Below are positions 54,887 through 61,520 of a stretch of 64,000 nucleotides of DNA, in pieces (position 1 is the first letter of the stretch; the number at the start of each line of letters is the position of its first letter). Source of the stretch: a virus (Duplodnaviria > Heunggongvirae > Uroviricota > Caudoviricetes); IMG/VR virus record IMGVR_UViG_2703718819_000006; one strand, 5' to 3'. The position numbers and the translations under genes were made by a program. Under the pieces are notes generated by a model that worked only from the letters and a program-made list of their open reading frames with translations, searched no databases and was not told the origin of the DNA.

Positions 54887-56065
54887 TCATAGAGCCTTAA
54901 TGCCCAAAACCTTGCTTTGTAACTCCAACTGCTTGGTATACGGTTTTGCCCGATAATAGGCTTTGATGATTTGCTCTGGCGTTGCATCGCCCGGGTCGAG
55001 TCCTTCCTCGCCCAAACACGCCACTTTGACATTAAGACCAATACTGGTCAGTCGCCTGGCTGCGGCCATCGTGTTGCGTATAGCTTGCTTTTCACTATCC
55101 CACATCATGATCACATTACGTAATCCACGCGCCTTGAGCGTCAGGAACGCGCCTAACTGATCTTCTGCATCCTGAGTGGTGTTACCAGATAGATGCATCC
55201 CGAACGTTCCTATCGGTTCCACGTAATCACGTAATGTTTCTTCATCAAAAATAGCTCGTTTAACCCCCATAACATCGAACGCCCCCTCACAGACAACTAC
55301 AGTCTGTTTGCCGACTGCATTATGGCCGTTGTAGAGAAACTTACCTGAAGCTGGAAGTTGCATAGGAAAGAGGTAGCGGCGTTCTGCTGTACCGGTAATG
55401 TCTCGTCCCTGAAATGTCTTCATTACCCCATCCAGATCGTAAACCGGTATCAGTATTCGCATATCGAATATCTGTCCTTTAACCTGATCTGTATACGGAT
55501 CTACATAAGCGTGCTTGCCTTCGACGCAGTATCGTAGGTCAAAATACTTTGCCATTTCAGGCGATATGTTTCGTTCAACCAGATAGTCTGGAAGACGGCC
55601 ATCTATAGGAAGTTCGTAATGACGAGGGAGTGCAAGTGGTCCCTCTAACTCGACTGTGCTTGCAAGCACTATCTCTTCTTTCTTTGGTGTCCACCCCTGG
55701 GAAAGAAGAGCGTTCTGCACATATTCCTCGAACTGTCGTCGTGATTTACCGCTGTAGTGCTTGAGGAAGACCAGCTTATTGAACTGAATCTCTTCGGGAT
55801 GATCACCAGCGAAGCATTTGCCGACGCCACTGGTCAGATTGAAATATACCTTCCAGTTGGAGCTGCCGCATACCGGACACTCCTTGATATTCACTTCACG
55901 ACCGCGAGCACTCACGCCTCCACGTCGATAAACGATACCTTCAGTGTCCAACCATTGTTCAAAATCTAATTCGGTAATTAGCTCTTTCAGCTCGCTCACG
56001 ATAATTCCACTTTTAACAGGCAATATTGTGACCAACCTAAATGTTGATATAACATAAAGGCTCAT
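54887..56065 (-). CDS. DNA primase (zinc-ribbon plus Toprim)
   Basis: CPVCGSSNW..GKCFAGDH zinc-binding region; VVVCEGAFDVMG Toprim; ORF track start 56137 is GTG, ATG at 56065 carries conserved leader. Confidence 0.75.
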   Translation of the reverse strand: MSLYVISTFRLVTILPVKSGIIVSELKELITELDFEQWLDTEGIVYRRGGVSARGREVNIKECPVCGSSNWKVYFNLTSGVGKCFAGDHPEEIQFNKLVFLKHYSGKSRRQFEEYVQNALLSQGWTPKKEEIVLASTVELEGPLALPRHYELPIDGRLPDYLVERNISPEMAKYFDLRYCVEGKHAYVDPYTDQVKGQIFDMRILIPVYDLDGVMKTFQGRDITGTAERRYLFPMQLPASGKFLYNGHNAVGKQTVVVCEGAFDVMGVKRAIFDEETLRDYVEPIGTFGMHLSGNTTQDAEDQLGAFLTLKARGLRNVIMMWDSEKQAIRNTMAAARRLTSIGLNVKVACLGEEGLDPGDATPEQIIKAYYRAKPYTKQLELQSKVLGIKAL

Positions 56066-56146
56066 GTGTTTTTCTTTTGTGGTTTGGCAAAAGAAAAGTT
56101 GTTTCACCAATGAATCAAGCGTGGAGGTGTTCTCCACGCTTATTTT

Positions 56147-57487
56147 TTAGGTAACGTCTAAGATTCGCTCAATGAAGCGCATTTGTTCGAGGTTTTGTTT
56201 AACGCGAATGCTGATCCCTCCCTGCTGGTTACGTGAACCAGCAAAGTAGAGACGAGCCTCTCCTTTCGCTTCTTCTTCTTCGGTTTTGTTGATCGTTATT
56301 ACCAGGTCAGCAATACGTACTTTTTCGATGTTGTCGGCAGCGTGCATCATTGTGGCAACTTCTGACGCGCCACCTTCACGGTTTGTCTGCGATGCCGTGA
56401 TCCCAGCAACGTTATGCTTGTCATAAAGAGCACGTAAATCGGTGTAGATACTACGAATGTTGGCGCGATCATCACGAAGGTCATAACTGGCACGCATCAA
56501 ATCTGCGTAGTCGACAACAACCATGTCAGGCACCATGCCGTTGGCTTTCATGCTGTTAAGCATACGGTCCAGATCTGCCGGTGACATACTTCCTGACGGA
56601 CGCTCAACCACCCACAAACTACCAATCCCCTTCGTGGCTCCCAACTCTGCCAACTTACGATGAACCTCATCGCGCCGTTCCACCAGCTTGGACATTTCTG
56701 TCTCCGACAATCTTGCATCAAAACGGTCGGATAAAATGGTGGTGTGAACCTCCAGCGAGAGATACAGAACATTGTAGCCAGCAAGCGTTGCGTTTATGGA
56801 AAACTCACCCATTGCGGTCGATTTACCGGATTTAGCGAACCCCATGAAGAGCACCATTTCGCGCTTTGCCCAGCCTTTTTGGTACAGCAACCTATCGAGA
56901 AGAGGGAGTCCAGTTGTAATACTGTTTGGTACATACTCCTCTGAAGCCTCATATTCACGCGCTTTCAATCGCTCACTTGCGGAGGTGTAGTAGTCATAGA
57001 TTCCGGTCGCTTCGTTCGATCCAATCTGCTGAACCTTGGCCATGATTGCCATCGCCCCCTGAAAGTCGCCTTTCTCTTTCAGTTCAGCAGCCTTAATCAG
57101 AGCATCATCAAACGCTACACTTTTTGCGAAGGTTGATACCTGGTCAACCATGTACGAGGTATCGGACAATTTTTCTGCAAGAATACGCTTAAACGCAGCA
57201 ACAACATCGGCGAATAGTTCCTCACGGATAGTCTTATCGCGTTTCGCACGCTTAAGCATATCCAGAATTGCAGATGAAGAGGGCGCGCTCTTGTACATAC
57301 GGTAATAGCCCGAAACCATATTAACCAATATGGCATTGGCCGCATTGGCAAACTGGCTAGGCACAACCAGATCTCCCGCACGAGTAAGAAACTCGTGATC
57401 ACGACAAAAATATGCCGTCAGTCTGTTCTGGAAATCTTCATCAAACTCTTCGGACAGCCCGCGTCCTGTATGGCAAAGTTCGGTCAT
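56147..57487 (-). CDS. replicative DNA helicase (DnaB-like, RecA-fold)
   Basis: Walker A GFAKSGKST, Walker B VVVDYADLM, arginine finger region. Confidence 0.8.
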   Translation of the reverse strand: MTELCHTGRGLSEEFDEDFQNRLTAYFCRDHEFLTRAGDLVVPSQFANAANAILVNMVSGYYRMYKSAPSSSAILDMLKRAKRDKTIREELFADVVAAFKRILAEKLSDTSYMVDQVSTFAKSVAFDDALIKAAELKEKGDFQGAMAIMAKVQQIGSNEATGIYDYYTSASERLKAREYEASEEYVPNSITTGLPLLDRLLYQKGWAKREMVLFMGFAKSGKSTAMGEFSINATLAGYNVLYLSLEVHTTILSDRFDARLSETEMSKLVERRDEVHRKLAELGATKGIGSLWVVERPSGSMSPADLDRMLNSMKANGMVPDMVVVDYADLMRASYDLRDDRANIRSIYTDLRALYDKHNVAGITASQTNREGGASEVATMMHAADNIEKVRIADLVITINKTEEEEAKGEARLYFAGSRNQQGGISIRVKQNLEQMRFIERILDVT

Positions 57488-57530
57488 GTGCTTTCCTTTG
57501 TTTTTTAAACAAATTGTTTTCTAGTATTAG

Positions 57531-58271
57531 TTAATTAGATAGGGGATCAATAAACCGCCGTGCTTCTTCCAGTTCTTCTGGAAAGTGGGCGGAAATAAGG
57601 CGCTCTGGAACGATTTCCATTAGCCAGATAGCGGAGAAAATTGCGCGTATGCGCTTGCTGCGAGGGATGGTGCGCAAACGCTCCAGAATCCACTCAAAAT
57701 AGCTTTCCTGAATCGGGTTGAACTGCATGTCTCCCATATGCTTAAAGCTAACCAGAGAGTCATCCAGACGGGTTGTTGCGCGTCTGGCTAATTTCTCTTC
57801 AAATATCTCAATCAGTTCTGGCTGCCATAAATGCTGTGGGCGCGGCAGCTTGTCCCACAGCCGTCGTGCAGCTGCGGAAAGAACGGTGGAGATAAAGTAG
57901 TCGTATGAGCAGCAATAGCGATCCGCAAACTGGCGTGCTTTCCATAGCGACGTTTTATTGGCAGTCGACAACTCCTGATAAGGCAGGCGTTTTAACCCGG
58001 TGGTGAACGGAGCTGTTTCAAAGTGTTCGCGACCGTGCGTCAGCATGATATTTGAGTACTGACGTTTGTATGCCTCCGTAAAAAGACAGGTGGCCATGAG
58101 AGGATGCATGTCGCGGTAATCAAACCACTTCGTCTCGAAGAGTTCAGCCTCGTCTTTACAGCGCGACAAACCAATGTTTTCAGCGACCCACTTGTCCATA
58201 ACAGCGGTATTCCACTCTGTCATGAAGTCGTACTGGTCGTTGTCGATGGTATCGAAAAAGATTTGGCTCAT
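57531..58271 (-). CDS. hypothetical protein
   Basis: ORF track 57531..58280 begins on GTG; ATG at 58271. Confidence 0.5.
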   Translation of the reverse strand: MSQIFFDTIDNDQYDFMTEWNTAVMDKWVAENIGLSRCKDEAELFETKWFDYRDMHPLMATCLFTEAYKRQYSNIMLTHGREHFETAPFTTGLKRLPYQELSTANKTSLWKARQFADRYCCSYDYFISTVLSAAARRLWDKLPRPQHLWQPELIEIFEEKLARRATTRLDDSLVSFKHMGDMQFNPIQESYFEWILERLRTIPRSKRIRAIFSAIWLMEIVPERLISAHFPEELEEARRFIDPLSN

Positions 58272-58387
58272 GTGGCTCACCTGGTAGGTAGTTACTTACT
58301 TATCGCAATGAGCGGATGATAGCGACTGGTGGCAGTTTTTGGAAGTGGAAACGGAAGGGAGTTGTTCTGGTGGTGTCTTTTAAAAGA

Positions 58388-58443
58388 CCTGCTTCCGTAT
58401 ATATTTAATAAGTTACTTATTATTTATATATATACAGAAGCAG
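58388..58443 (-). terminator. long AT-rich-loop hairpin, second copy of element at 10072..10130
   Basis: Arms cctgcttccgtatatat / atatatacagaagcagg. Confidence 0.4.
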
Positions 58444-58555
58444 GCATAACTTGTCGTCTTAGACGCCCAGAAGCTCTACACTTTGAGCCTGTTAAATTGA
58501 TTAAAAACTTATGTGTAAAATAGAACGCATTAGTCAGTAGCAAAGAGATGCAATA

Positions 58556-59323
58556 ATGGACGATTTATCGGTATACGCGAGATCATTGGATAAGGCTAAA
58601 TACTATGTTTACTGTCTCTATGATACAGAAGACAAGATGAAAAGACCGTTTTACATAGGAAAAGGCAAATCGACTCGTTGTCTCGATCACATCAAGTATC
58701 CCGATGACTCTCCCAAATCCATGCGGATCAAAGAACTTTTGGCTAATAAAAAATTAGGCATAGATATACTTCGTCATGGTATGGATGAAACCACAGCCAA
58801 ACTTGTTGAGGCGACATGCATCGACCTTATGGGGGTCGGAGAGCTTACGAATAAGGTACGAGGAAGTGGTTCCATGATGGGCAGAATATCACTGGACGCC
58901 TACCATCACTTAGTGCTGCAAGAGGAAACTGAAATTGCTCCTGAGCACGCCGGTCTTGCCTTCCTGCTAAACAGCACCTACAAGTCAGGAATGTCCGCTC
59001 TGGCATTATATGAAGCTACGCGTGGCGTATGGGCAAAGGTTCCAAGAGACGAGAATCTCAAATATGCCTACGCTACATATGGTGGGCTGATAATGGAAGT
59101 TTATCAGATTGAATGCTGGGTCAAAGCCGGTTCTCAGCAGTACTTTACAAGGGATATAGCTCTTGGCCCTGACACAAAACGTTATGAATTTGTTGGCAGA
59201 ATAGCCGATGAGCATATTAGAAAACTGTATGTAGGCAAATTAATCAAGAAGCCACCAAGCTACGGTAGCCCTTTTGTGAAGGTTGGGGTGGTTAGGACTG
59301 AACATAGTGTTAGCGCGGCATAA
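58556..59323 (+). CDS. GIY-YIG domain nuclease with C-terminal domain of unknown function
   Basis: YVYCLYD...PFYIGKGKSTR matches GIY-(x10)-YIG-R catalytic motif. Confidence 0.6.
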   Translation: MDDLSVYARSLDKAKYYVYCLYDTEDKMKRPFYIGKGKSTRCLDHIKYPDDSPKSMRIKELLANKKLGIDILRHGMDETTAKLVEATCIDLMGVGELTNKVRGSGSMMGRISLDAYHHLVLQEETEIAPEHAGLAFLLNSTYKSGMSALALYEATRGVWAKVPRDENLKYAYATYGGLIMEVYQIECWVKAGSQQYFTRDIALGPDTKRYEFVGRIADEHIRKLYVGKLIKKPPSYGSPFVKVGVVRTEHSVSAA

Positions 59324-59375
59324 AGCTGACACTGTAGTTATGCATTGGCGCAATGTACGCGCCAATGCATAATTT

Positions 59376-59735
59376 TTAACCTTTCTTCATCAACTCTCGT
59401 TTGATTTCATCGGTACGCATCGTGACATCGGCAGCGGTGATCGCCTCATTCAATTTCACGATGTCCTCGATTTCCTGCGGTGACTTCTCTGCCAGATGGA
59501 AAATGGCTGCTCGAATCACGTCAGAACGAGTGAACTTCTCGAAGCGAGGGATGAACTTCATCATCTCCAGCAGTTCGAAGTATTCGTCCTCCAGTGACAT
59601 TGTGCGGCTTTTAATTTTCTCTTTGCCACGAGTCGGGCGTCCCTGTGGTCTGACTGGTTGGCGCAAAGGAGTTGTGTTCTTAGCCGGTGCATCAGGCTCT
59701 TTGCGCTTTGCTAGGTCACCCATTTTCATGGACAT
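59376..59735 (-). CDS. partition protein ParB/ParG-like (small centromere-binding protein), putative
   Basis: Small basic protein immediately downstream of parA with TAATG overlap. Confidence 0.5.
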   Translation of the reverse strand: MSMKMGDLAKRKEPDAPAKNTTPLRQPVRPQGRPTRGKEKIKSRTMSLEDEYFELLEMMKFIPRFEKFTRSDVIRAAIFHLAEKSPQEIEDIVKLNEAITAADVTMRTDEIKRELMKKG

Positions 59736-60403
59736 TATTCTTCTTCCTCCAGACTCAACAGATAATCTACAAATTCTTCAAACTCGGCTTCCGCCTTTTT
59801 GTCGCGCTCGCTACCGGTCATTTCAAAGATAGAACGACCAGACTCTTCCGCATCATCATAGACGTTGCGGTTATATAGATTGACTGGCGCAGACTCGATT
59901 CCAAACGTCTCAACAATCTCTTTAGCCGCCAGAATGCGAGACACTTGTGATGGCAAAGCCGGGCACTGGTTCATGACCGCGCGGACCTTCACTTTATCGT
60001 TTACATTGCGAACATTGTCGATAATAGGATCGATGTCACGTAAAGATTTCAAATCACGACGCTTAGGACGCAGCGGGATAATGATAACGTCAGCCATCAG
60101 CATCGCTTGTCGCTGAATTTCGGAGTCGAAGCCACCAGCATCTACCACTACAAACTCAGCTCTACCCTGAAGCGATTTTAGGTGCTTAATGATGTCATCC
60201 TGAACGTATGCAAAAGGAATCAGCTCAAGGTCTTCGTTCTGTCGACGGTCTTCACACCAGCTCGTTGTCGTGCGCTGAATATCTATATCGGTAATATAAA
60301 CCTTCTTCTTCTTTTTGACTTTCAGGCAAACGGCAATTTGCTGGGCAACGGTGGATTTGCCAGGCCCGCCCTTTGTGCCGCCAACCACAAAGATCTTGGT
60401 CAT
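59735..60403 (-). CDS. parA: partition ATPase ParA
   Basis: Deviant Walker A GGTKGGPGKST and ParA/MinD fold motifs. Confidence 0.8.
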   Translation of the reverse strand: MTKIFVVGGTKGGPGKSTVAQQIAVCLKVKKKKKVYITDIDIQRTTTSWCEDRRQNEDLELIPFAYVQDDIIKHLKSLQGRAEFVVVDAGGFDSEIQRQAMLMADVIIIPLRPKRRDLKSLRDIDPIIDNVRNVNDKVKVRAVMNQCPALPSQVSRILAAKEIVETFGIESAPVNLYNRNVYDDAEESGRSIFEMTGSERDKKAEAEFEEFVDYLLSLEEEE

Positions 60404-60721
60404 TGGAGAGTTCCCTTTGCGTATATAATTATCGTCTGAAACAACTTGTTTTCTTATATGTGATATAGCCTAAATGCCTACGGCTGCGGTGTAAAGGTTA
60501 AATGGTAGGTTGTGATTAACAATTGGCAAACATAGCTTGTATTTGTCTGTTGAAAAAAGTAACAATGACCTCTATATTACAAGTACGGTGATATGCCGTA
60601 CACAATTTGATAATGCACACGTAATGGGCTATAGCCTTTTAAAGTAATTTTTGAGTCGAAAACTCAGTTTGAACAGAGGAGATTGATGGCCTTCCTACAT
60701 CACGGCCATCAGGAGGAATAC

Positions 60722-60991
60722 ATGTCAGCACTAAAAAAGCAGCGCATCGATTTGAGATTAACCGATGACGATAAAAGCATCATCGAGGAAGCTGCCGCAA
60801 TGTCTAACCAGAGCATTACTCAGTTTATGGTTAGCAGTGCATCTGAACGTGCCGTGAAAGTTATAGAGCAACACCGTAGACTAGTTCTGAATGAAGAATC
60901 CTGGAATCTGGTTATGGACGCTATAAGCAATCCTCCGGCACCGAACGACAAGCTGAAACGAGCTGCTGATCGTCTGAAAAGCATGGAGTAG
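60722..60991 (+). CDS. RHH antitoxin of GNAT toxin (TacA/DUF1778-like)
   Basis: KKQRIDLRLTDDDKSIIEEAAA pattern; AGGAGG RBS at internal ATG. Confidence 0.65.
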   Translation: MSALKKQRIDLRLTDDDKSIIEEAAAMSNQSITQFMVSSASERAVKVIEQHRRLVLNEESWNLVMDAISNPPAPNDKLKRAADRLKSME

Positions 60992-60998
60992 TTTACTC

Positions 60999-61520
60999 GT
61001 GGATAATATAAAGATAGAAATTTTCTCTGGAGAGAAAGATTATGATTTGAATGGTTTTGATTGCGGTGAAGAATCACTAAATGCCTTTTTAACCAACCAC
61101 TTAAAAAGGCAGCATGAGGGAAAAATTCTTCGTGCTTATGTGCTTTGCACGAAAGAAGGCAGACCAAAAGTGTTAGGGTATTACACTTTGTCAGGTAGCT
61201 GCTTTGAAAAGGAGTCCTTACCTTCAAGAAGCCAGCAAAAGAAGGTACCTTATCGGAATGTTCCAAGTGTTACTTTGGGTAGGCTGGCTTTGGACAAGTC
61301 CCTTCAAGGTCAAGGATTTGGCTCAATGCTTGTAACACATGCAATGCGCGTTGTGTACAATGCATCTCTTGCTGTAGGCATTCATGGACTTTTCGTTGAG
61401 GCGTTAAATGACAAAGCCAAGGCGTTTTATAAAAGTTTAGACTTTATCCAGCTGGTTGGTAACAACGAGCGTTCTTTGTTCTATCCTACAAAATCTATCG
61501 AAAAATTGTTCGAAGAATAA
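60999..61520 (+). CDS. GNAT-family acetyltransferase toxin (TacT/AtaT-like)
   Basis: GRLALDKSLQGQGFGSML acetyl-CoA binding motif; GTG start 8 nt after antitoxin stop. Confidence 0.7.
   Translation: MDNIKIEIFSGEKDYDLNGFDCGEESLNAFLTNHLKRQHEGKILRAYVLCTKEGRPKVLGYYTLSGSCFEKESLPSRSQQKKVPYRNVPSVTLGRLALDKSLQGQGFGSMLVTHAMRVVYNASLAVGIHGLFVEALNDKAKAFYKSLDFIQLVGNNERSLFYPTKSIEKLFEE

Follow-up and report, generated by a model that had tools for sequence, protein, structure and literature searches.

A predicted modified-DNA restriction nuclease of the CMoRE/PD-T4-3 family in a variable cargo slot of SSU5-type phage-plasmids

PD-T4-3, first found in Escherichia coli ECOR68, is now known as CMoRE, of which the enzymes of E. 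coli O157:H7 and avian pathogenic E. coli (APEC) O1 have been crystallised (PDB 9U75, 9U8D, 9U7U, 9U7Z; Liu et al., Nat Commun 2026, PMC12923530). CMoRE, a type IV restriction endonuclease made of a single protein, binds to and cleaves DNA that contains 5-hydroxymethylcytosine (5hmC) or glucosyl-5hmC (5ghmC), and it gives about 10^5-fold protection against the phages T2, T4 and T6 by direct defence (PMC12923530). Its cuts are of the form CN11/N9G and leave 3' overhangs of 2 nucleotides. Characterised homologues cut 5hmC and 5ghmC DNA, not DNA with cytosine or 5-methylcytosine (5mC), and serve in direct defence against T-even phages (PMC12923530, PMC12366544, 10.1101/2024.12.20.629700). The enzyme works as a homotetramer, a dimer of dimers, with V92 and L96 in an interface and the beta1-beta2 loop at the inter-dimer interface (PMC12923530). 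In the present study we describe a gene that most likely encodes a divergent, predictedly active member of this family. It lies in a stretch of 64,000 nucleotides, here called the window, from a virus of the class Caudoviricetes (IMG/VR record IMGVR_UViG_2703718819_000006). In contrast to the enzymes described above, this protein is carried by a phage-plasmid of the SSU5 type and shares about 35% identity with CMoRE.

The scan of the window for open reading frames (ORFs) gives an ATG-initiated ORF of 255 codons on the plus strand at 58556-59323. The PADLOC model of PD-T4-3 (PDLC04031) matches residues 11-231 over profile positions 11-238 of 256 (E-value 1.3e-23, 81.9 bits), and phmmer aligns residues 12-230, a range that takes in both domains, with the crystallised sequences 9u7u_A (E-value 2e-15) and 9u75_A (E-value 3.5e-15). 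The best Foldseek matches are 9u75, 9u7u and 9u7z (E-value about 1e-11, probability 1.0), with about 260 columns aligned to the first two. Sequence identity to the characterised CMoRE enzymes is about 35% overall, 40% in the N-terminal domain and 32% in the C-terminal domain. Pfam assigns a LEM-3-like GIY-YIG domain to residues 32-104 (30.1 bits, cut-off 27), which accounts for the GIY-YIG part only, and a search of the 255-residue protein against NCBIfam returned no family.

The catalytic motif is conserved. The tyrosines of the 'GIYxY-YIG' motif (Y17, Y19 and Y33) align with Y17, Y19 and Y31 of CMoRE, and R41, E85 and N99 align with R39, E93 and N105. All six residues are invariant in our alignment A1 and are retained in 101 of the 107 nearest representatives, a sample that leans to the query's side of a family of 1,781 representatives at E<=1e-3. 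Among the positions of the CMoRE tetramer interface V92 is conserved as V84, and R80 corresponds to R73.

The AlphaFold2 monomer model consists of two confident domains. The part of the ORF that precedes the linker (58556..58831, plus strand) has a short alpha2-alpha3 loop (YPDDS). It is followed by a flexible interdomain linker, residues 93-107 (58832..58876), in which the predicted local distance difference test (pLDDT) score falls below 50 for residues 93-104, and by a predicted modification-sensing domain, residues 108-247 (58877..59296), of divergent PUA-like fold and homologous to the CMoRE sensor domain. The low-confidence linker agrees with the crystals of CMoRE, in which the interdomain linker has no electron density (PMC12923530). 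Superposition of the whole model on the CMoRE crystals is poor (TM score 0.38, root mean square deviation 16 A), which we attribute to the flexible linker since the C-terminal domain alone superposes at 3.1 A. No partner gene is present in the cassette, and the arrangement of N-terminal GIY-YIG domain, linker and C-terminal sensing domain is a single-component layout (type I architecture). An earlier note on this DNA had recognised the GIY-YIG gene of 255 residues on the strand opposite to its neighbours in AT-rich surroundings, as we also find, and had left the C-terminal 150 or so residues unassigned. Profile, phmmer and structure comparisons now place that region in the CMoRE sensor family, and the suggestion of a nuclease effector gains support in the form of an anti-phage restriction nuclease, both domains being homologous to CMoRE/PD-T4-3 (PMC12923530).

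Other modification-dependent and GIY-YIG enzymes differ from the query in instructive respects. Type IV enzymes such as VcaM4I (6YEX), and the N-terminal domains of McrB (6N0S, 6P0G), combine a PUA-like reader (EVE, YTH, ASCH or SRA) with a nuclease. The nuclease of the query is of GIY-YIG type, whereas theirs is HNH or PD-(D/E)xK with a GTPase, and the likeness of the reader domains is at the level of fold only, with 3-11% identity. R.Eco29kI (3MX4), a GIY-YIG enzyme of type II, acts in a sequence-specific way, is blocked by modification and has a methyltransferase as its partner. The query cassette has no methyltransferase, and a role in type II restriction-modification was rejected on this ground.

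The nuclease gene is the central part of a variable cargo cassette of 933 bp (58445..59377, plus strand), which is made up of its own upstream segment, the CMoRE-like ORF and its own terminator, and which is delimited by breaks of homology and by composition. The homology shared with Cyrano, CMS-2020a (SCU-175), SSU5 and pM-64-1161 breaks off at 58444-58454 and returns at 59378. The left break lies directly 3' of a hairpin stem (ending in CAGAAGCAGG, 58444) and the resumption on the right is at the stop codon of a 119-residue gene (59376-59378). The ORF has a GC content at third codon positions of 0.434, against 0.50-0.58 in the flanking genes, and the cassette a GC content of 0.433; the base composition of the nuclease gene is foreign.

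The 5' segment of the cassette (58445..58555, plus strand) is cassette-specific and AT-rich, with a GC content of 0.36. It includes a weak sigma-70 candidate, TTAAAT-18-TAAAAT at 58492-58521, that matches 8 of 12 positions in a permissive scan, and a weak AAGAG Shine-Dalgarno sequence about 8 nucleotides upstream of the ATG. A promoter can be assigned here only tentatively, and a strict scan for promoters and terminators gave nothing relevant. At the other end the cassette carries a predicted intrinsic terminator of the nuclease gene (59336..59377, plus strand), with a stem of 16 bp, a loop of 7 nucleotides and a TTTTT run, that includes a perfect 14-nucleotide inverted repeat at 59338-59372. 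This hairpin has a folding energy of -25 kcal/mol (z -6.9) and is followed by AUUUUUAACC on the plus strand only.

The hairpin at the left boundary (58388..58444, minus strand) has arms of 21 nucleotides and folds on the minus strand with -28.1 kcal/mol, followed by UCUUUUAAAAG (UCUUUU, minus strand). Both hairpins fold far better than shuffled controls (z -5.3 to -7.2). The stem of the left hairpin is kept in Cyrano, CMS-2020a, SSU5, PhiR41_1 and pM-64-1161, and divergence begins immediately 3' of it. Between the E. coli phage-plasmids and Salmonella phage SSU5 the AT-rich middle of the hairpin is variable and the GC-containing outer stem is retained. The long-stem hairpin that the earlier note had seen upstream of the nuclease gene is thus present, but it belongs to the backbone and not to that gene, and it is the exact left recombination boundary of the slot. 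Transcripts of the minus strand that arrive from the par side or from the cargo may be terminated here, ahead of the helicase operon. A search of this hairpin against Rfam matched no family, and sub-threshold matches to miRNA-like hairpins were dismissed.

Sharply bounded by the backbone hairpin on one side and the stop codon of the 119-residue gene on the other, the slot is a defined hotspot of defence cargo, for which at least five states of occupancy are found. Besides the CMoRE-like gene these are a DUF2971 protein (PADLOC candidate PDC-S31) in Cyrano, the DUF2971 protein (PDC-S31) with two extra genes in SSU5, a KAP-family NTPase of 567 residues (PDC-S49) in CMS-2020a (strain SCU-175) and a 350-residue protein of phrog_22329 in pM-64-1161 (NZ_MT773673.1; L005:1368-2420, plus strand, in the same orientation as the nuclease). 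In the records of these relatives the slot intervals are L001:3952-4767, L002:3943-5700, L003:3937-5874 and L005:1242-2482. Each cargo has its own, different hairpin adjoining the right junction. An empty slot was not seen in any of the relatives examined, each of which held other cargo of about 0.8-2.0 kb; the survey of slot size covered about 60 of 737 plasmid records. Searches of the 350-residue protein against PADLOC and Pfam were empty and no convincing PDB match was obtained, phrog_22329 being its only match, and by its position the protein is a candidate new defence gene.

This region of the replicon shares 98-99.8% identity with E. coli phage-plasmids of the SSU5/pSLy3 type, namely Escherichia phages CMS-2020a, Cyrano and PhiR41_1 and many records of about 110 kb labelled 'plasmids'; its identity to Salmonella phage SSU5 is 82.6%. 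Among 5,426 complete E. coli genomes, 107 have the cassette, in every case on plasmids and at an identity of at least 98%, and the nuclease gene is intact at that identity in 106 E. coli plasmids. The backbone that adjoins the cassette is present in 259 of the genomes, so that the cassette occupies about 41% of them. Variable presence in relatives, a check that the earlier note had proposed, is therefore borne out, unrelated genes standing at this place elsewhere. The same note had named universal conservation at the locus, together with a characterised non-homing function, as speaking against its proposal; conservation is far from universal, while the family does have a characterised non-homing function. 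A survey of clinical phage-plasmids already names PD-T4-3 as one of the defence systems found in SSU5 elements of clade J from E. coli and Shigella (10.1101/2025.09.12.675607).

Exchange of the cassette between backbones is seen in the plasmid pLAO18 (NZ_OP242248.1), whose cassette is 98.2% identical to that of the window while its helicase, phrog_2500 and parA genes are 80-84% identical; the immediate flanks of the cassette are intermediate, with 88.8% and 92.5%. Along the window from 56147 to 61520 the identities are 80% for the helicase, 84% for phrog_2500, 98% for the cassette, 92% for the parA-coupled gene, 84% for parA, 95% for a TacA-like gene and 89% for a GNAT gene. A cassette of 98.2% identity on a backbone of 80-84% indicates that diverged backbones have recently exchanged it, recombining through their conserved flanks. 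A partial copy in one E. coli plasmid, NZ_CP107722.1 (L006:3244-4468), was considered as a remnant of a cassette swap and rejected, since only the last 158 bp, with the C-terminal 37 codons, remain, directly beside a copy of IS26, and the copy is an IS26-mediated truncation.

Closer homologues of the nuclease, with 50-79% identity, stand alone in variable regions of bacterial chromosomes. The homologue in Providencia is 73-75% identical. In one genome (L007:2511-8750) it has mutS and rpoS at a distance of about 3 kb, in another (L008:4249-8750) it is near a Fic gene, and in both a methyltransferase is nearby. The mutS-rpoS region is polymorphic in Enterobacterales. Another chromosomal homologue sits among transposases and RelA/SpoT-like genes.

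The features of sequence and structure that could be compared with CMoRE are all present in the query except the acidic 'safety-catch' loop. The alpha2-alpha3 segment between H45 and I58 has 12 residues (IKYPDDSPKSMR) as against 20 in both crystallised enzymes, and the loop (HIK-YPDDSPKSMR, residues 46-58, window 58691-58729) has two adjacent acidic residues, D50 and D51, in place of the four of CMoRE. The shortening amounts to 8 residues in the MAFFT alignment and 5 in that of HMMER, with DD in place of DDDE or DDDD. When the four acidic residues of the O157:H7 enzyme are changed to alanine it cuts unmodified DNA and becomes toxic, and the inserted loop with these residues is described by the authors as present in 'most', not all, members of the family (PMC12923530). 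The short loop is found throughout the clade at an identity of at least 50%. Among the 107 nearest full-length representatives, sampled with the bias mentioned above, 65 have exactly this loop length and an acidic run of at least three residues occurs in only 3. As the majority state of these representatives, the short loop is a stable and widespread design and not a defect.

Several observations weigh against a simple transfer of the properties of CMoRE to the query. The four-residue acidic catch is not conserved, and the clade of the query must then control self-cleavage differently or differ in its affinity for the substrate. At the tetramer interface L96 of CMoRE is replaced by C88, a cysteine invariant in the query's clade, and the beta1-beta2 loop is longer by 2 residues; the oligomeric state, like the activity itself, is a prediction by homology to enzymes that are only about 35% identical. 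The contact of CMoRE with 5hmC is made by a main-chain atom (PMC12923530), and the corresponding segment is poorly aligned, so that specificity is not readable from the sequence; Y127 aligns with L121 of CMoRE within a gapped stretch of low confidence. The cassette also offers no convincing promoter, the stricter consensus scan of the 5' segment being empty and the permissive one yielding the weak candidate only.

The earlier note had also considered a homing endonuclease. A free-standing enzyme of the Seg or I-TevI kind would cut a specific site in cassette-free phage-plasmids and be copied in by recombinational repair. In favour of such a history are the presence in a phage of a GIY-YIG gene that stands alone and the graded identity of the flanks, and the catalytic domain is common to the query, I-TevI and the T4 Seg proteins. 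However, the C-terminal domain of the query is by homology the PUA-like modified-base sensor of CMoRE and not a NUMOD or helix-turn-helix (HTH) module for site-specific DNA binding, and Pfam reports no NUMOD, IENR1, zinc finger or HTH module in the protein at E<=0.01. Nor is there an empty homing site, for the slot is never empty in the sampled relatives and contains unrelated candidate defence genes instead. The family of the query, unlike those homing enzymes, is mainly chromosomal in bacteria, where the close homologues are solitary in variable regions, and CMoRE cleaves without a strict sequence requirement beyond two modified cytosines (PMC12923530). Homing is on these grounds very unlikely, and that suggestion is not upheld. 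A housekeeping role, as an accessory of replication, partition or DNA processing in the phage-plasmid, is hardly credible. Its position between the replication genes and parA is all that recommends such a role; the gene is absent from about 59% of the backbone-bearing E. coli genomes, has a foreign base composition and forms a separate transcription unit on the opposite strand, and variable presence with replacement by unrelated genes rules out a part in replication or partition.

A nuclease of the CMoRE type could also respond to another trigger, such as N6-carbamoylmethyl-adenine or arabinosyl-hmC, or, without the acidic safety catch, act in a more promiscuous or abortive mode limited by its level of expression. 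The short, non-acidic loop and the identity of only 32% between the C-terminal domain and the characterised sensors would fit such a nuclease. PD-T4-3Capno of Capnocytophaga, which belongs to the same family as the query, is 48% identical to PD-T4-3 and is a modification-dependent nuclease in E. coli (Rodriguez-Rodriguez et al., Cell Host Microbe 2025, PMC12366544). It degrades T4 DNA and also Mu DNA, which contains carbamoylmethyl-adenine, and the specificity of the family is therefore plastic. For the convergent par operon, no U-run follows hairpin I3 on the minus strand, and antisense read-through could dampen expression of the nuclease. Against this, the short loop is the majority state of the sampled representatives, the gene is kept intact in the 106 E. 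coli plasmids, and the characterised members of the family act by direct defence; we regard such a departure as improbable. A wider proposal is put forward tentatively. The query may belong to a large short-loop branch of CMoRE enzymes without the acidic autoinhibitory catch, which would discriminate self in another way or read different or broader hypermodified bases, and the slot may be a recombination-exchanged defence slot whose uncharacterised occupants, such as the 350-residue phrog_22329 protein, would be new anti-phage genes.

Modified-DNA restriction by a phage-plasmid, the family-level mechanism, is by analogy with the characterised enzymes the probable function of the gene, and we lean slightly towards 5hmC or 5ghmC as its actual substrate. 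The phage-plasmid would express the nuclease in the lysogen. The C-terminal PUA-like reader would by homology bind hypermodified cytosines on injected DNA of the T-even type, and the GIY-YIG domain would then cut and degrade the bound DNA. Host and phage-plasmid DNA, with unmodified cytosine or 5mC, would not be bound and would be spared. The cassette would in this manner shield the lysogen, and hence the phage-plasmid, from T-even-like virulent phages through direct defence and not abortive infection.

Homologues of the nuclease are also encoded by virulent jumbo phages of Serratia, Pectobacterium, Klebsiella and Pseudomonas with 25-33% identity (MK994515.1, Serratia phage Moabite, 6439-7125; ON287375.1; MN642089.1; JN627160.1). 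Most of them cover 71-88% of the protein, that is both domains, while the match in Pseudomonas phage OBP covers 52%. Their records name them GIY-YIG or 'putative homing' nucleases; they may instead be CMoRE-like enzymes for competition between phages.

The neighbourhood agrees with the placement of the gene between a helicase block and the par genes given by the earlier note. To the left, all on the minus strand, are a conserved phrog_2500 protein (57531..58280), the first gene of the helicase/primase block, a DnaB-like helicase (56147-57487) and a primase (54887-56137). To the right, also on the minus strand, are the 119-residue parA-coupled gene of phrog_5111 (59376-59735), whose stop codon is the right boundary of the slot, and ParA (59735-60403); the lysis genes come after the par region. 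The start of the 119-residue gene overlaps the end of parA by one base. It is labelled 'RelE/ParE putative toxin' in phage Cyrano and here matches phrog_5111 only, with no Pfam family. Its position suggests a partner of the ParB/ParG type, and the toxin label looks doubtful.

Just past parA are a TacA/DUF1778 antitoxin (60683-60991) and a GNAT toxin (60999-61520), the latter termed KacT in the annotation of Cyrano. PhiR41_1 and SSU5 have unrelated genes at this position (L004:6069-7244 and L003:7052-8208). The part of the window from 60404 to 61520 seems to be a further variable slot for cargo, across the par operon from the first. Both cargo regions, the cassette and TacA/GNAT, appear from their sequence identities to have been exchanged more recently than the backbone.

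The occurrence of PD-T4-3 in SSU5 phage-plasmids has already been reported, and the current understanding is not overturned by our findings. They provide a predicted function for a gene that more than 100 complete plasmid records of E. coli list as 'hypothetical' or as 'LEM-3-like GIY-YIG domain-containing protein'. A likely restriction nuclease against T-even phages is carried by a common family of E. coli phage-plasmids, reported in Shigella too, and this bears on phage therapy and on the phage typing of these hosts. The acidic safety-catch loop of CMoRE is not a general feature of its family. In the structure comparisons the sensor domain of CMoRE, whose fold was reported to have no homologues, looks like a divergent PUA-like reader, an assignment that would connect it to other type IV restriction enzymes. 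For new defence genes, the slot bounded by the backbone hairpin and the par genes is a defined place to search.
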